Positions 2,060 through 50,519 of a DNA stretch of 54,477 bases are shown here, piece after piece (position 1 is the first letter of the stretch; each line of letters opens with the position of its first letter). Below the pieces are notes generated by a model, which worked only from the letters and a program-made list of their open reading frames with translations, was not told the origin of the DNA and ran no database searches. Both the position numbers and the translations under genes were made by a program. Origin of the DNA: Candidatus Methanomethylophilaceae archaeon (GTDB taxonomy: Archaea > Thermoplasmatota > Thermoplasmata > Methanomassiliicoccales > Methanomethylophilaceae); NCBI GenBank assembly GCA_050944155.1, contig JBMNQN010000007.1, positions 1-54,477 on the forward strand, written 5' to 3'.

Positions 2060-3309
2060 TCAGTTTTTCAGGCATCCGGCCGAAACCACGTACACTCCGT
2101 CCGGTCTCCGGTAAGAGGGGCCCGTCGAAACGAGCACCGCAAGAAACGACGGTTCTCCGGTTTTTTCGGTGTCCACCATGTCCCTGAGTTTAAGGAGATT
2201 TTTTGCCGCGGTATCCGCTTCCCCGGAACTGAGTTTTACTTCGATTGCTCCCCATCTTCCGTCGGAAAATTCCAGAACGAAATCGACTTCGAAACCGTTT
2301 TTATTGCGGAAGAAATAAACCTCTCCTCCCAGAGATTGGGAATATACGCGCAGGTCTCTGAGGCACAGGGATTCGAAGAGAAAACCGAGAGTGTTGTAAT
2401 CCTTAAGCAGGGCATTTTTATTGATTTGCAGAGCTCCGGCAGCCAGAGACGGATCCGTGAAATGCCATTTGGGCGTAGTTACCAATCTCGTTCTTGAACG
2501 CAGATGCGGATTCCATGCACGCAGATTTTCCGTCAGGAATATGCGTTCCATGGCATCGAGATACCTTTTAACGGTTCCTTCGTTGGTTTCGCCCGCGTCT
2601 CTCATAACGGAGCGGATGCTGGCGGAGGTCGATACGTTCCTGGCCACCGATTCGATTATTTTTGTTGCAACGGAAGGATTTTTTGAACTCCGTCGACTCT
2701 GGAAAGATTGGACATAACTACGGATTTAAGATAATCCCTGACGACCTTATCTGACCTGAAACGGTCATCCGAAACTACCAAGGGCCATCCTCCGCGTAAA
2801 ATAACGTCGGCGAGCTGTTCGATTTTTGTATCGGCATATCCGTCTATTGTCTCCGATTCCAACATTGATTCGAGCGAAACTGAACCATTGGAATCTCCCG
2901 ATTCGAAGAGACTCATTGTCCTCATGCTTATTCTTGCTATCCTTCCGGCACCCGAGTGTCTTAACGGATCTTCGGGAGGGACCGAAGAACCCGTAAGTAT
3001 GAACTGTCCGTTTTCTCTCCTGCGGTCGACCTCGAATCTTATGACGTTCCATATCTCGGGAACATCCTGCCATTCGTCTATAAGCTTGGGCGTTTCTCCT
3101 TCGAGAAAAGCGACAGAACCGCTTTCCGCTGCCAATCTGAGTGATTCTATCTGATTTTTTGAAACAATGTGGATGGAGCTCTTCGAATGCTCTTCCGCGG
3201 TTCTGGTTTTACCGCACCATTTTGGGCCCTCTATAAGCAACGATCCGACACTTTCCAGATATTCGTTTATCTGCGAATCTACGATTCTTTTCAGATAGGT
3301 ATCGTTCAT
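2060..3309 (-). pseudogene. AAA_14/DUF4143-family ATP-binding protein, split by a 1-nt frameshift at an A6 tract
   Basis: Walker A GPKWCGKT, Walker B LIDEWQ, FILTGS, GGWP in 2656-3309; WNPHLRSRTRL..PKWHFTDPS, GFLFE, EVDFV..GAIEVKL in 2060-2647; one extra A at 2679-2684 joins them; collinear with the intact paralog at 49075-50346. Confidence 0.88.
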
Positions 3310-3366
3310 TATACTTTCAGATATGTACCAGTGGCATAATATTTTTTAGATTGAATTAATAGAATA

Positions 3367-3450
3367 ATGAGGTTTGTCCAACTTTCATTATGAGGTTTGT
3401 CCAACTTTCATTATGAGGTTTGTCCAACTTTCATTATGAGGTTTGTCCAA
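3367..3450. repeat. Perfect tandem repeat, 23-bp unit ATGAGGTTTGTCCAACTTTCATT x3 + 15 bp
   Basis: Units at 3367, 3390, 3413 and partial at 3436-3450; no spacers. Confidence 0.97.
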
Positions 3451-26277: not shown

Positions 26278-26623
26278 AGAACTGGTAACAAACTCGGTAA
26301 ATTAATAGATGCCGTGGAAAAGGTTTTACGGTGCCGGATTATCTCCTGCTATCTCATTTTTTATCCGTGCTGTGCGGCGGATGTCTGCGGAAACCCTGTT
26401 GCGGCGAATCGGAAAATTCAGCGGATTTTCCGGCTTTCGATGCGGATGAACAGAACGATACATTAGTGCGAAAATTTATGTTTTAAAATATCTGGCCAAT
26501 CATTATGTAACAGATATGATAACAAATATGGTAATAAATAATGGTTTGTATTTTACCGATTATAGTTCCAAAAATTGTTTATATCCTCAAGCACAACAAC
26601 GATAGCCAGCCGATTTCAGAAGG

Positions 26624-28723
26624 ATGGGATCACACATGTTCACCGAATCAGACAATTTGCTCAAGGGAAGTCCGGAATCCACGGACATCGGGCTCTTCGT
26701 CAGATCTTCCGACGAGGACCTTAAAAAGTGGGATAAGAAGAGAATCTACAGCACGCTTCTGCGCGAAACCGAAATCACGGAACTCAACGCGATGCTCATC
26801 GCCAATGACGTCGACCGTATGGTGAAACAGCTTGATATACGGTATATTACGGCGCCCCTCATACGCGAACTTACCAATGCAAAACTTATGGAGAGGGGTC
26901 TCGAAGACATAAGAAAACAGCACACTCGTCTGGGAGTTCCCATCTACGATGCCAGAGAAATCATCGTGTCTCCCAACAAAGAGAATGCCAACGTGCCCCA
27001 CGGCCCCGAAGCCACGAATCTCACCCTGGCGGAGAACATCAAGAAAGAATTCGCCCTTCTGGAAGTTTTCACCCCCGACGTAGCCGACGCACACATGTCC
27101 GGACTGATTCACCTTCACGACCTGGGGATGATCGACCGCCCCTACTGCAGCGGGCAGTCCATAGAATACGTGAAAAAATTCGGTCTGAACCTTCCCAACG
27201 CAATGTCCATAGCGAAACCCGCCAAACATCCCGAAGTCCTGATAGAACAGGTTATCAAATTCTCCGCAGCCCTGCAAGGCCACTACGCCGGCGCAATAGG
27301 ATGGGACGCGGTCAACATGTTCCTTTCCCCCTACCTCGCGGGAGTCGATGACGCGAGAATGCATCAACTCGCGCAGATACTCGTCTACGAATACGCCCAG
27401 CAGGCGGTCGCCAGAGGCGGCCAATCCATATTCAGCGATCTGAACATATACTGGGAAACGCCGAAACACTTCGTCGGAGTTCCCGCGATAGGTCCGGGCG
27501 GAGAATACACCGGAAAGAACTACGAGGATTACGAGACAGAATCCCAAAGGTTTGCCATGGCACTCATGGACGTTTATCTCGAGGGCGACGCAAACGGAAG
27601 ACCGTTCTTCTTCCCCAAACCGGAAGTCCACATCACCGACAGGTTCTTCCAGACTCCCGGCCACGAAGAGTTCATGGAGAAAGTCTGCAGACTCTCCGCC
27701 GAGATGGGGAACACGTACTTCGTGTTCGACAGGGGAGATACCGCAAGAGTATCCGAATGCTGCAGGCTTTCGTTCAACCTCGACGAACAGGATCTCGAGG
27801 ATGCCAAAACACCGTGGAAAATGCGTTTCTCCGCGATGCAGAACGTTACTCTCAACCTTCCCCGCATAGCATACATGGCGGACGGAAACGACGAAAAGCT
27901 GTTCGCGGGAATAACGGAGGCCATGGAACTCGCCGTGAAAGCCCACGGTCAGAAGAAAGAATTCATAAAACAGCTCATGGACATGGGCAACAGCGGACCC
28001 CTCGGCCTGCTTTCCATGGACCTCGACGGGGAACCGTATTACAGAATAGAAAAATCGTCCTACCTGATAGGCATACTCGGACTCAACGAGATGATTCAGT
28101 ACCACACAGGAAAAGAGCTTCACGAGTCCGACGGTGCCGTGAAGTTCGGGCTGAAAGTCATAGCTTATATGCACAAAGAAGCACAGAGATTCTCCGCCGA
28201 AACCGGACTGAAGATTTCTCTGGAACAGACTCCCGCCGAATCCACCGCGTACAGGTTCGCCAAACTCGACATGCGGGACTTCAGGCAGAAGGCTTCCGAA
28301 GTCGTGAAAGGAAACCGCGGCACCGGAGAAATATACTATACGAATTCCACGTACCTCAACGTGGGAGCGGACGTGAGCCCCGTGGAACGGGTCAGAATCG
28401 AAGGAATGTTCCATCCCATCATCGATGCCGGCGCGCTAACCCACGTGTGGCTGGGAGAATCGAAACCTTCTCCGGAGAGCATAGCTGCTTTCGTTAAAAC
28501 CACGTTCGAAAAGACTCAGAACGGACAGATTGCGTTCAGCCCCGATTTCACTTCCTGCCTGGACTGCGGAAAGACTTCCCGCGGACTCTCCGAAAACTGC
28601 CCCAGCTGCGGTTCTCCGCACACCGAAGGCATAACCCGCGTCACCGGATTCTATTCAAAGATTTCCGGATGGAACAAGGGCAAAAAGGGAGAACTGGCAG
28701 ACAGAGTCAGATATGGAATATGA
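26624..28723 (+). CDS. nrdD: Anaerobic (class III) ribonucleoside-triphosphate reductase with ATP cone
   Basis: AHMSGLIHLHDL, PYC, CCRL, NLPR, EQTPAESTAYRFAK, YYTNS, CxxC..CxxC, glycyl radical ITRVTGF; start 26624 or 26636. Confidence 0.96.
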   Translation: MGSHMFTESDNLLKGSPESTDIGLFVRSSDEDLKKWDKKRIYSTLLRETEITELNAMLIANDVDRMVKQLDIRYITAPLIRELTNAKLMERGLEDIRKQHTRLGVPIYDAREIIVSPNKENANVPHGPEATNLTLAENIKKEFALLEVFTPDVADAHMSGLIHLHDLGMIDRPYCSGQSIEYVKKFGLNLPNAMSIAKPAKHPEVLIEQVIKFSAALQGHYAGAIGWDAVNMFLSPYLAGVDDARMHQLAQILVYEYAQQAVARGGQSIFSDLNIYWETPKHFVGVPAIGPGGEYTGKNYEDYETESQRFAMALMDVYLEGDANGRPFFFPKPEVHITDRFFQTPGHEEFMEKVCRLSAEMGNTYFVFDRGDTARVSECCRLSFNLDEQDLEDAKTPWKMRFSAMQNVTLNLPRIAYMADGNDEKLFAGITEAMELAVKAHGQKKEFIKQLMDMGNSGPLGLLSMDLDGEPYYRIEKSSYLIGILGLNEMIQYHTGKELHESDGAVKFGLKVIAYMHKEAQRFSAETGLKISLEQTPAESTAYRFAKLDMRDFRQKASEVVKGNRGTGEIYYTNSTYLNVGADVSPVERVRIEGMFHPIIDAGALTHVWLGESKPSPESIAAFVKTTFEKTQNGQIAFSPDFTSCLDCGKTSRGLSENCPSCGSPHTEGITRVTGFYSKISGWNKGKKGELADRVRYGI

Positions 28724-40296: not shown

Positions 40297-40573
40297 CTCG
40301 GTTTGTAAGATTCCGGATGTAGATATATAACTAGTCGAATTATTATATATTTACATATATATCAATATATATCTATCTATAATGTCTGTATAATAAATAT
40401 CCTGTTAATTTCCGCATAGGTGCCAGTATTTTTTATAGAATATATTTCCAAGAGAATGTTTCCGGAATAACGGACACATCAAAAGTATAAATCCGCTTCG
40501 TCCTGCAGCCGATTTATATCATAATTATGACGATTACAATCTATATATAACATATAGATATATACATATTAAT

Positions 40574-41614
40574 ATGGATAAGCTTAAATCCTCTGTAAAT
40601 GTAAAGTCCTCCGTGGACATAAGACGCGTACAGATTACCGGCGGTTCCTCGTTTATGGTGACACTGCCCAAGGATTGGGCGGAATCCGTAGGAATGAAAA
40701 AGAACGATTCCGTGGGTTTGCAGGCTCAGCCCGACGGAAGTATAATCATTTATCCTCAGGGAATCGAAAAAACAGTAGAAAAAACCGTCAAAGTCATCGA
40801 CGTCGATTCGGTGAAGGACAGAGACTTTCTGTACAGACAGCTGGTCGGATCATATATTGCGGGACACAGTTCGATAGAGCTGCGCTCCGAGAGCCATATC
40901 CCCAGTATGGTTGCGGGTGTCGCTTCGGTTTTCACCCAAACCGCAATCGGTCTGGAAATCATAGACGAAAGCGACACCAGAATTCTCATCAAAGATCTGA
41001 TGGACCAGGCAGAGATGAAACCCGTCAAATCCATAGAGCGTCTCAAGGTTCTGATAAAAAATCTGCTGAGCGACATTCTGGACGGGGCGGAAAGCGGAAG
41101 GAAGAACATAGCGGAAAACCTCGTTGAAAAAGACCGCGAAATAGACCGCATAGACTGGCTCATATCCAGACAGGTCAACATCTATCAGAAGGATTACTCC
41201 CTGGCAAGGAAACTCGGAACCAAACTGACCGAGATTTCCGGGTGCAGCACCGCCAGCAGAACCCTGGAACGCATAGGAGACCACGGTCTGATACTGGCAA
41301 AGAACATAGACGTTCTGAACGAAGAACCCGGAACGGCGGAAGTTCTTAAGGAAGTCGTATCCATCGGACGGGAGGTCATGGAACAGGTTTCCATATCCGT
41401 CTCCACCTGGCTGGACAAAGACATGCATGCCGCCAACAAATGCATAGAGGACAGCGCCCGTCTGGCGGAACGCACGAGAATACTCTCCAGAATGGCTTCG
41501 GACCTGAACCAGAACGTGGGAGTCGCCGTCAGTATAATCGGGGGAAGCCTGAGACGTATGGCCGAGTATTCCATGGACCTTTCCGAACTTGCCATAAATT
41601 CGGCCATGGGATGA
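40574..41614 (+). CDS. phoU: Phosphate uptake regulator PhoU with N-terminal AbrB domain
   Basis: RRVQITGGSSFMVTLPKDW, DREIDR, LERIGDH; divergent from pstS. Confidence 0.92.
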   Translation: MDKLKSSVNVKSSVDIRRVQITGGSSFMVTLPKDWAESVGMKKNDSVGLQAQPDGSIIIYPQGIEKTVEKTVKVIDVDSVKDRDFLYRQLVGSYIAGHSSIELRSESHIPSMVAGVASVFTQTAIGLEIIDESDTRILIKDLMDQAEMKPVKSIERLKVLIKNLLSDILDGAESGRKNIAENLVEKDREIDRIDWLISRQVNIYQKDYSLARKLGTKLTEISGCSTASRTLERIGDHGLILAKNIDVLNEEPGTAEVLKEVVSIGREVMEQVSISVSTWLDKDMHAANKCIEDSARLAERTRILSRMASDLNQNVGVAVSIIGGSLRRMAEYSMDLSELAINSAMG

Positions 41615-48979: not shown

Positions 48980-49063
48980 GCGGAGGTAGCCAAGCGGTCA
49001 ACGGCGCAGGACTTAGGATCCTGTCGTAGAAGTTCGTGGGTTCGAGTCCCTCCCTCCGCACCA
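48980..49063 (+). tRNA. tRNA-Leu(TAG)
   Basis: GCGGAGG/CCTCCGC-A-CCA; anticodon arm CAGGA-CTTAGGA-TCCTG; variable arm; GGTTCGAGTCCC. Confidence 0.95.
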
Positions 49064-49074
49064 ATCCCGAAACA

Positions 49075-50346
49075 TCAGTCCCTGAGGCATCCGACGGGTA
49101 CCACGTACGTGCCGTCGGACATCGTATATGCCAGTTCTCCGCCGGTCACAACCATCCTGAATTCCGGTTTTCTGAGTCCCGCTTCTATTATCAGATCTTC
49201 CAGTTTAGAAAGATTTTCCGCGCCCAGTTTTACGTTTGCGGAACCCAGTTTGACCTCTGCTAGACAGTATCTTCCGTCTCTGAGCACGATAACCGCATCC
49301 GCCTCCAGACCGTATCTGTCGCGGTAATAGAAGACTTCGCCTCCGATACCCGAGGCGTATACTTTCAGGTCTCTGAGACAGAGGCTTTCGAACAGCAGAC
49401 CGAACGTACGGAATTCTTCGGTTATATTGTCGGGTGTTATCCCCATGTACAGGGCGGCAATGGACGGGTCTATAAGTTCTCTTTTGGGAGCCGCCCGCAT
49501 AGCTGTTCTGGATCTCACGGAAGGATTCCAGGCAGGGATTTCGTCGATTATGAAAACGTTCTTCAGAGCGTTCATGTAATCGTTGAATTTCGATTCCGAA
49601 ATGGTTACATCATGACCTACAGTATCTTCATAAATTGTTTTTGTATCAGCTAAAGAAGATATGTTTCTTGAATACGAACGTACGATTTTCTTGGCCGTAT
49701 CTACATCTTTAGCGTATTTGGAAAGCGACATATCGTCGCTTTCGTAAATGAGTTCCAGATAGCTTTCCAATTTCAATGCGCATTTACTGTATTCGAGACC
49801 TATGTTTTCCGGCCATCCGCCCCTGCATAAACAATAAGCGATGTCTCTGACCGACAGGGAAGATGTTTTTCCGTCTACTGTTTCTTTACCCGAAAAGAGA
49901 CCGCTTAAGGATACGGTGCCGTTGGAATCACCCGATTCGAAAAGACTCATCGTCCTCATGAACAGGACTCCGATTCTGCCCGCTCCGCTGTGCATATAAC
50001 TTCCCTCAGCAGGAACTCTCGATCCCGTAAGAATATAGAGGCCCGTGCGTTGCTTTTCATCGATTTCCGTACGAACTGCATCCCATATTTTCGGATACGC
50101 CTGCCATTCGTCTATAAGCCTGGGATTTTCTCCGTCCAAAATAAGAGATATGTCCGTCTGCGCAGCCAGAAGATAATCTTCCGACTTTCTCGAATCCTGC
50201 ATCTTTATTACGCTTTTAGCGTGTTTTTCCGCCGTTGTGGTCTTTCCGCACCATTTAGGACCTCTGAGAAGAACTGCACCGAAGGTATCTAAATAGAGCT
50301 GCAGTTGGTCGTCTATTTGTCTTCTAAGATAGACTTTCTTGTCCAT
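49075..50346 (-). CDS. AAA_14/DUF4143-family ATP-binding protein with C-terminal PD-(D/E)XK-like motif
   Basis: GPKWCGKTT, LIDEWQ, YILTGS, GGWP, WNPSVRS, GLLFE, EADAV..LAEVKL. Confidence 0.92.
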   Translation of the reverse strand: MDKKVYLRRQIDDQLQLYLDTFGAVLLRGPKWCGKTTTAEKHAKSVIKMQDSRKSEDYLLAAQTDISLILDGENPRLIDEWQAYPKIWDAVRTEIDEKQRTGLYILTGSRVPAEGSYMHSGAGRIGVLFMRTMSLFESGDSNGTVSLSGLFSGKETVDGKTSSLSVRDIAYCLCRGGWPENIGLEYSKCALKLESYLELIYESDDMSLSKYAKDVDTAKKIVRSYSRNISSLADTKTIYEDTVGHDVTISESKFNDYMNALKNVFIIDEIPAWNPSVRSRTAMRAAPKRELIDPSIAALYMGITPDNITEEFRTFGLLFESLCLRDLKVYASGIGGEVFYYRDRYGLEADAVIVLRDGRYCLAEVKLGSANVKLGAENLSKLEDLIIEAGLRKPEFRMVVTGGELAYTMSDGTYVVPVGCLRD

Positions 50347-50380
50347 TTACAGTGTATATATCTATATCACTACTTATTAT

Positions 50381-50464
50381 TGCTTGTGATTTGTGGTGTT
50401 TTCTGCTTGTGATTTGTGGTGTTTTCTGCTTGTGATTTGTGGTGTTTTCTGCTTGTGATTTGTG
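50381..50464. repeat. Perfect tandem repeat, 23-bp unit TGCTTGTGATTTGTGGTGTTTTC x3 + 15 bp
   Basis: Units at 50381, 50404, 50427 and partial at 50450-50464; no spacers. Confidence 0.97.
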
Positions 50465-50519
50465 ATAGGGATCAGAATAGACTGACAGAATTAAAATCAA
50501 ATACACGGATACGGAAAGG

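Follow-up and report, generated by a model that had tools for sequence, protein, structure and literature searches.

Private 23-bp repeat arrays at the promoter edge of PDC-S01-type ATPase-nuclease genes in archaea and bacteria: a candidate autoregulatory operator

Introduction

Why should an ATPase gene of an archaeon be preceded, just beyond its promoter, by a perfectly repeated stretch of DNA, and which protein reads the repeat? The question is raised by a contig of 54,477 nucleotides (JBMNQN010000007.1 of assembly GCA_050944155.1, from Candidatus Methanomethylophilaceae archaeon; the whole stretch is called here the window), in which two genes for a predicted ATPase-nuclease, about 47 kb apart, each follow an array of 23-bp direct repeats. 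The window is one contig (C7) of a 27-contig, 1.04-Mb genome (G000) that is 92% complete. Judging from window genes that include an XPD-type helicase, a wyosine-formation radical-SAM enzyme and DUF373, together with the methyl-coenzyme M reductase alpha encoded in the genome, the host is a small methanogenic archaeon.

The two genes share an ATPase plus PD-(D/E)XK architecture with PDC-S01, a single-gene phage defence candidate (PDC; COG1373) that is very common and has crossed several times between domains, according to the accessible text of PMC12988326. In the accessible portions of PMC12988326 and PMC13356809 it ranks fourth in abundance among the (candidate) defences of prokaryotes and is the single locus met most often in rumen genomes. 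In the main text of 10.1101/2024.01.29.577857 the 145 PDCs are described as untested, and neither that main text nor the accessible portions of the two other sources report an experimental test of PDC-S01; in all three it is catalogued as a protein alone, whereas here the gene comes with an array. An earlier note on this DNA, made from the sequence by itself, had proposed a candidate undescribed system: its protein family thus proves to be catalogued already, and for upstream repeat arrays of PDC-S01 or AAA_14+DUF4143 genes we found no description in the literature, subscription journals and preprint supplements being outside the scope of the search.

Results

Two perfect arrays precede two related genes

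The arrays, as delimited by Tandem Repeats Finder (TRF), are:

3367-3450, minus strand: array 1; period 23, 3.7 copies, 100% matches, score 168, unit ATGAGGTTTGTCCAACTTTCATT
50381-50464, minus strand: array 2; period 23, 3.7 copies, 100% matches, score 168, unit TGCTTGTGATTTGTGGTGTTTTC

Each is a perfect 84-bp stretch made of three 23-bp units and 15 bp of a further one, and so presents four phased boxes. In the orientation of its gene, array 1 reads TTGGACAAACCTCAT followed by three copies of AATGAAAGTTGGACAAACCTCAT, and array 2 reads CACAAATCACAAGCA followed by three copies of GAAAACACCACAAATCACAAGCA; the units of the two arrays differ. Array 1 ends 57 nt before the ATG of gene 1 (at 3309) and array 2 ends 34 nt before that of gene 2 (at 50346), and TRF returned no further period-23 row in the window. 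The perfect array upstream of the first ATPase gene, the distant paralogue with the same layout and the restriction of such arrays to these two genes of the window, all noted at first sight of the sequence, are thereby borne out.

Across the whole genome, TRF gave 31 rows with a score of at least 50, four of them period-23 arrays, and three of these four precede the three members of the subfamily to which gene 2 belongs. The third array lies on contig C18 (C18:7509-7571; 2.7 copies, 100% matches), 35 nt upstream of the third paralogue.

Since public short-read (Logan) contigs break inside the array, one might suspect an assembly artefact, or else a chance repeat devoid of function. This explanation is refuted: the same array sequence occurs in public runs from 12 studies, k-mers internal to the unit have a depth above that of the flanks, as expected of a true repeat, and arrays recur before most homologues of the gene (see below). 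A chance origin is excluded because five dinucleotide-preserving shuffles of the 1.04-Mb genome reached maximum TRF scores of only 59-66, against the 168 observed. Array 1 is nevertheless imperfect in some populations, as RNA-library contigs of two runs (X15 and X16) carry a C-to-T change at window position 3402, in one unit of the array.

Upstream arrays are a hallmark of the gene family

Enrichment upstream of family members, which the earlier note had named as the check to be made, was found in both domains. A bacterial set comprised 75 homologous loci from Bacteroidales, Treponema and Firmicutes-labelled genomes, with proteins 42-67% identical to that of gene 2, and TRF detected a period-23 array centred at most 250 bp upstream of the gene in 67 of them. 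All 77 period-23 rows from these loci fell within 18.7 kb of upstream DNA, versus none in the other 277 kb, and three of the eight TRF-negative loci still have two boxes at a 23-bp offset. The bacterial loci are not independent, the 66 complete proteins forming 13 clusters at 80% identity; counted by cluster, TRF found an array in 11 of the 13. Array copy number among relatives runs from 1.9 to 9.7.

For archaea, we used 41 genomes of the host's order (G000 included), 14 of which contain homologues, up to seven per genome, for a total of 26 loci. TRF reported period-23 or period-24 arrays in 21 of these loci, and a second criterion (12 or more of 14 positions matching when offset by 22-24, within 160 nt upstream) was satisfied in 24 of the 26, versus one of 381 control windows from the same loci. 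Upstream arrays are thus confirmed as a hallmark of this gene family in bacteria and archaea.

A second PDC-S01 subfamily, to which a 450-aa gene of the same genome belongs, has boxes phased at 32-33 bp, detected by TRF in 9 of 22 loci and by eye in three more; relatives with such boxes are spread over many bacterial phyla. PDC-S01 subfamilies differ in box period. The representative in this genome is:

C18:4715-4788: second-subfamily array; three AAAACATGCA-type boxes at 32-bp spacing, upstream of C18:4841-6193 (plus strand; 450 aa; PDC-S01 model PDLC04786)

The gene product is predicted to combine a STAND-like module with a nuclease

The intact representative of the family in the window is:

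49075-50346, minus strand: gene 2 (protein P0001); 423-aa ATPase-nuclease

Pfam assigns to P0001 an AAA_14 domain (41.7 bits; cut-off 27) followed by DUF4143 (86 bits; cut-off 28.1), and the same two domains occur in gene 1, distributed over two reading frames. All four DUF4143 genes of the genome, two in the window and two on C18, match PDC-S01 profiles (PADLOC-DB v2) over their full length: P0001 matches model PDLC04790 with E 1.7e-57 (residues 5-421 on profile positions 10-417 of 422), the minus-strand paralogue on C18 reaches E 1.3e-59, and the plus-strand gene on C18 matches PDLC04786 with E 1.9e-127. The family is large, with 7158 clusters (50% identity) at E of at most 0.001 among 1.84 billion representatives. 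NCBIfam holds no family for any of the three proteins searched, and a sequence search of P0001 against chains of the Protein Data Bank (PDB) gave one chance-level match only.

An AlphaFold2 model of P0001, built on 130 diverse sequences, was obtained with high scores (predicted local distance difference test 95.6; predicted template-modelling score 0.94). It divides the protein into a nucleoside triphosphatase (NTPase) domain (residues 1-145), a helical lid (146-211), a winged helix (212-292) whose wing has conserved basic residues (RS....R..PKR in the consensus), and a PD-(D/E)XK domain (293-423). The modelled nuclease core has the order alpha-beta-beta-beta-alpha-beta (helix 312-333, strands 336-342, 348-355 and 360-366, helix 369-388, strand 397-401), with D350 on strand 2 and E364-V-K366 on strand 3; D343, E348 and D350 are nearly invariant among the 130 sequences. 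On this model, the C-terminal domain has the core order of the PD-(D/E)XK superfamily, as well as its D and (D/E)xK on strands 2 and 3, and DUF4143 appears in the superfamily table in the accessible part of PMC3424549.

Residues 1-302 find their best structural matches in 2qen_A (Z 14.7; 256 residues aligned) and 2fna (Z 13.7; 253 aligned), both at 15% identity, then in modules of signal transduction ATPases with numerous domains (STAND), namely the NB-ARC of nucleotide-binding leucine-rich-repeat proteins (Z 11.8-12.3) and Avs5 (Z 9.6), and at a lower level in MuB, ORC/Cdc6 and DnaA (Z about 8-9.6). The predicted layout and these matches agree on the module order of STAND and Orc/Cdc6-type proteins, that is, a P-loop NTPase, a helical domain and a winged helix. 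The Pfam domains and the model together uphold the composition given for this family at the outset: an AAA+ ATPase, a helical or helix-turn-helix-like middle part and a PD-(D/E)XK-like C-terminus.

Gene 1 is interrupted by a polymorphic frameshift

The first cassette had been described as holding an ATPase gene like that of the second. Both domains are indeed encoded, and what fails is the continuous reading frame:

2656-3309, minus strand: gene 1, first frame; 217 aa, the AAA_14 NTPase part (Pfam E 9e-12), ending at TAA
2060-2701 (open), minus strand: gene 1, second frame; winged-helix part and DUF4143 / PD-(D/E)XK nuclease part (DUF4143 E 5e-33)
2679-2684, minus strand: homopolymer (T6 on the plus strand, A6 on the gene strand), the site of the frame break

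A -1 frameshift at the T6 run splits the gene, and one extra base restores a continuous frame; amber read-through is not involved, because the first frame stops at TAA. The frameshifted T6 form also occurs in contigs of a landfill DNA run (X3) and an RNA-library run (X15), and contigs of a biogas-fermenter run (X13) have one T inserted behind 2678, giving T7 and an intact frame. The frameshift is thus real and polymorphic between populations, and the T6/T7 difference would represent either a recent, spreading inactivation or an on/off switch.

The arrays adjoin the core promoter

What lies between array and gene is, in both cassettes of the window, a short AT-rich tract:

3310-3366, minus strand: promoter region 1; AT-rich tract from array 1 to the ATG, with an AT-rich 8-mer at the array edge
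50347-50380, minus strand: promoter region 2; TATA-like AT-rich tract from array 2 to the ATG

The last unit of the archaeal arrays breaks off precisely at the start of the AT-rich, TATA-like element, and this explains the form of the arrays as three full units plus 15 bp. Of 24 archaeal arrays, 21 have an 8-mer with at least seven A/T between -6 and +6 nt from their end, and the AT-rich 8-mer starts a median of 36 nt (interquartile range 33-40) before the start codon. Archaeal TATA boxes usually lie about 26 nt before the transcript start, and leaders are very short; the geometry of the array ends fits this usual placement.

Bacterial arrays end 28-140 nt (median 56 nt) before the start codon. 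The -7 motif of Bacteroidetes has the consensus TAnnTTTG, which 15 of 19 bacterial representatives carry 16-45 nt upstream of the ATG; a TTTG-containing sequence often follows directly after the array. Despite the different transcription machineries of the two domains, in both of them the array borders the core promoter on its upstream side.

In two metatranscriptome runs, contigs extend over the body of gene 1 and part of its array, which is a hint that the locus is transcribed, DNA carry-over being possible and transcript ends not being visible in contigs. One RNA-library contig (X15) ends at 3319, inside promoter region 1, a weak hint of a transcript end.

Units are private to single genes

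All arrays have the same orientation relative to their gene. In bacterial units a common core, yACCnCAAAA, and a common tail, tAAAA, enclose a clade-specific middle, and the unit of array 2, read in gene orientation (CACCACAAATCACAAGCAGAAAA), fits the bacterial core; 18 of its 23 positions are shared with the array before L081, a 77%-identical orthologue of gene 2. Among 60 non-identical arrays, unit-to-unit mismatch is low at positions 6-10 (0-7%) and 13-14 (3-5%), and reaches 17-24% at positions 1, 2, 5, 12, 20 and 23, which is the profile of a constrained box with looser spacer positions.

Each of the four period-23 units of the genome is found solely in its own array when up to four mismatches are allowed. 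In all 16 pairs of paralogues that reside in the same genome, with proteins 38-53% identical, unit identity is 0.38-0.61, versus a median of 0.48 for shuffled units. Units of co-resident paralogues are thus unrelated, and therefore no shared host factor can read them all.

This bears on the possibility that the array is a promoter element independent of the ATPase, acting through some other factor, through DNA shape, or through a tuning or switching of repeat number as at contingency loci. The position at the promoter edge and the variable copy number would suit such an element, as would the length-variable homopolymer of gene 1 and the near-perfection of archaeal arrays, which have a median of 98% matches with 9 of 21 perfect (bacterial arrays: median 84%, 3 of 56 perfect), as expected of recent slippage or unequal exchange. 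However, the period is kept while the units of paralogues are unrelated, a combination for which neither a single host factor nor a common DNA shape accounts; certain positions of the unit stay constant within arrays while their neighbours drift; and the layout persists through transfer between bacteria and archaea in spite of their different transcription machineries. We regard an element independent of the ATPase as unlikely, albeit worth keeping in mind.

The cassette as a small insertion

The second cassette lies beside a tRNA gene:

48980-49063, plus strand: tRNA-Leu(UAG) gene; convergent with gene 2, its 3' end 11 bp from the gene 2 stop codon, marking the insertion site
49064-50519, no strand assigned: cassette 2, between the tRNA-Leu 3' end and a ferredoxin-like gene

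These are outer limits, because no alignment is obtained with the intergenic DNA of relatives. In the window, 1.45 kb separate the flanks of cassette 2, and the extra DNA consists of gene, promoter and array only, with no recombinase gene in the cassette; in at least 13 of 15 relatives from the genus the same flanks are about 50-105 bp apart and have no ATPase match between them, the others giving too little alignment. Cassette 2 is, as far as these comparisons of sequence go, an insertion of about 1.4 kb made up of array, promoter and gene, in keeping with the single-gene module proposed before. The site of cassette 1 is without an ATPase gene in every relative, one of which (G006) has an extra Sel1-repeat gene there instead.

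Two further archaeal loci (L085 and L086) have a tRNA 3' end 27-30 bp from the 3' end of the ATPase gene. In another (L083), the cassette is convergent with a tRNA gene whose 3' end is 245 bp away. None of these four tRNA-convergent cassettes, that of the window included, has an integrase gene within flanks of about 1.5 kb.

The array could accordingly be imagined as the working end of a selfish element, either a site of recombination or transposition or a set of origin-like iterons by which the cassette is moved or copied. A recombinase-less insertion with the array at its outer edge, the recurrence of the tRNA-abutting layout, and the resemblance of the fold to MuB and ORC/Cdc6 are what this would predict; moreover, TnsA of Tn7 is a PD-(D/E)XK nuclease, and the ends of Tn7 carry several 22-bp sites. 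But the inverted binding sites at both ends that characterize Tn7- and Mu-like elements are absent: in three cassettes we found no copy of the box, direct or inverted, near the far (3') end of the cassette, 11-mers with at most one mismatch giving chance-level matches inside genes. In every case the array faces the gene and borders on its promoter; the copies are scattered over the chromosome, and there is no Rep-type protein. A selfish role of this kind is very unlikely in our estimation, and the origin-like or plasmid-iteron function suggested at first is not supported, given the lack of a Rep-type protein and of a second element end and the fixed position and orientation of the arrays at the promoter edge.

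The fourth period-23 array of the genome (C19:5905-6013, or L147:1806-1914; 4.7 copies, 93% matches) is the only imperfect one of the four and is flanked on one side by a Hef-like helicase gene and on the other by an ATP-dependent DNA ligase-like gene (names from N-terminal sequences). Only about 100 bp separate the genes flanking this array in two relatives from the genus (G001 and G009), and tblastn found no ATPase homologue at the site in three relatives from the family (G043, G046 and G048), whose larger gaps hold other genes.

A proposed private operator array

The reading that we favour, and to which we give about an even chance, is that the ATPase binds its own array head to tail as an oligomer and controls its own transcription, the array being a private operator. 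Self-binding is the simplest reading because the units are private and those of paralogues unrelated, spacing and orientation are strict, certain positions are constrained, the array stands at the promoter edge, and the ATPase is its sole constant companion; a winged helix in the predicted fold lends indirect support. We infer the identity of the binder, the direction of regulation and any role in defence.

In this model, a cassette would comprise three or four boxes, directly repeated every 23 bp, a core promoter and a PDC-S01 gene, with the boxes forming a cis-regulatory operator array that serves this gene alone. The gene product would bind the boxes head to tail, as a nucleotide-dependent oligomer, at the upstream edge of the promoter, which would be the transcription factor B recognition element (BRE)/TATA in archaea and the -33 element in Bacteroidales. 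Once bound, the protein would set its own transcription, most plausibly by a negative feedback that keeps a potentially self-damaging nuclease at a low level. As operator and regulator travel together, such a cassette would work after transfer between bacteria and archaea, and, as their boxes are unrelated, paralogues in one cell would be insulated from each other.

Several observations weigh against this reading. Co-variation of the repeat unit with the middle domain of the protein, which the earlier note had expected, was assessed by partial Mantel tests of unit against domain segments over 47 non-redundant proteins, and these do not single out the winged helix: its partial r is 0.03 (p 0.31), versus 0.24 for the NTPase and 0.155 for the nuclease. 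The overall correlation of unit and protein, 0.46-0.54, is explicable by shared descent alone, and because there is no signal specific to the winged helix, we do not claim co-variation as support. In Prevotella-type loci one and the same protein is preceded by two box types, which means that it need not recognize the variable middle of the unit. The winged helix of STAND proteins usually serves as a structural element of the nucleotide switch rather than for reading DNA. Archaeal activators usually sit immediately upstream of BRE/TATA, and the position at the promoter edge therefore suits an activator as well as a repressor. Array 1 is still perfect although gene 1 is frameshifted. Finally, the array on contig C19 has no adjoining ATPase gene; it may be a remnant left after gene loss.

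An extension of the self-binding reading, which we think quite unlikely, sees in the array both the sensor of an immune module of one gene and a platform on which its protein rests: the protein would sit there as an inactive, nucleotide-bound filament, and an invader cue would both derepress the gene and free the nuclease. Such a cue, whether competing repeated DNA, a change in the nucleotide pool or DNA damage, would pull the filament off or reshape it. The fast, paralogue-specific divergence of boxes would then prevent cross-talk among up to seven modules in a 1.5-Mb genome, and the package of operator, promoter and gene would be usable in bacteria or archaea without a host factor. In a bolder variant, the same protein and array would also mediate the recombinase-less insertion of cassettes beside tRNA genes. 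Scans of viral contigs gave no sign of orphan arrays, in what are weak tests: exact 23-mers of arrays 1 and 2 had no match in the viral_contigs set, an exact-match scan, and a degenerate Segatella-type unit was found in one IMG/VR contig, which carries the whole cassette including the ATPase gene.

Other repeats in the window

Two further regions of the window have short tandem repeats. A 12-bp repeat (TATGTAACAAA-like, 3.2 copies) at 26504-26540 is a possible regulator site; it lies about 85 bp upstream of an anaerobic ribonucleotide reductase gene (26624-28720). AT-rich short tandem repeats occur at 40344-40381 and 40543-40575, in the intergenic region from which phosphate-transport genes and a PhoU/MazE-domain gene (40574-41611) diverge.

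Discussion

How do these cassettes compare with known pairs of a protein and its repeated sites? Plasmid iterons, as in R6K, RK2, pPS10 and P1, are direct repeats beside a Rep gene, and autorepression of the rep promoter by the initiator is known. The likeness to them is considerable: three to five head-to-tail repeats of about 22 bp adjoin the gene of the presumed binder, with a sequence private to each element, and the 23-bp units, private and orthogonal, correspond to the element-specific tandem direct repeats of about 17-22 bp by which iterons are recognized. Unlike the WH1-WH2 Rep initiators, however, the protein here is an AAA+/STAND-like NTPase-nuclease for which Pfam reports AAA_14 and DUF4143 only, and instead of the origin of an autonomous replicon we find chromosomal arrays at several sites per genome, each at a promoter edge and with no recognisable origin context.

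Archaeal Orc1/Cdc6 binds origin recognition boxes, and DnaA binds arrays of DnaA boxes, including those in its own promoter. These, too, are AAA+ NTPases with a helix-turn-helix or winged-helix domain that act on repeated boxes, and they resemble residues 1-190/303 of P0001 with Z of about 8-9. The likeness does not go beyond the AAA+ fold in general and scores lower than the matches to 2qen and 2fna; the boxes described here are strict 23-bp direct repeats private to one gene, and the protein carries a nuclease. The closest structural matches, the Walker-type archaeal ATPases PABY2304 (PDB 2qen) and SSO1545 (PDB 2fna), share the NTPase, lid and winged helix and differ in lacking the nuclease domain; we know of no function assigned to either. 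Overall, the sequences lead us to liken the cassette to an autoregulatory direct-repeat operator, iteron-like in layout, placed on an abundant ATPase-nuclease, with a mechanism that we infer.

For the family, the gene-private, phased array is a first concrete handle on PDC-S01, as it predicts a specific DNA ligand for each protein. It also supplies a simple sequence signature by which PDC-S01 cassettes can be found and delimited. Private boxes would explain how many paralogues coexist in one genome without interference, and the cassettes would represent a regulatory unit that keeps its architecture across the divide between bacteria and archaea.

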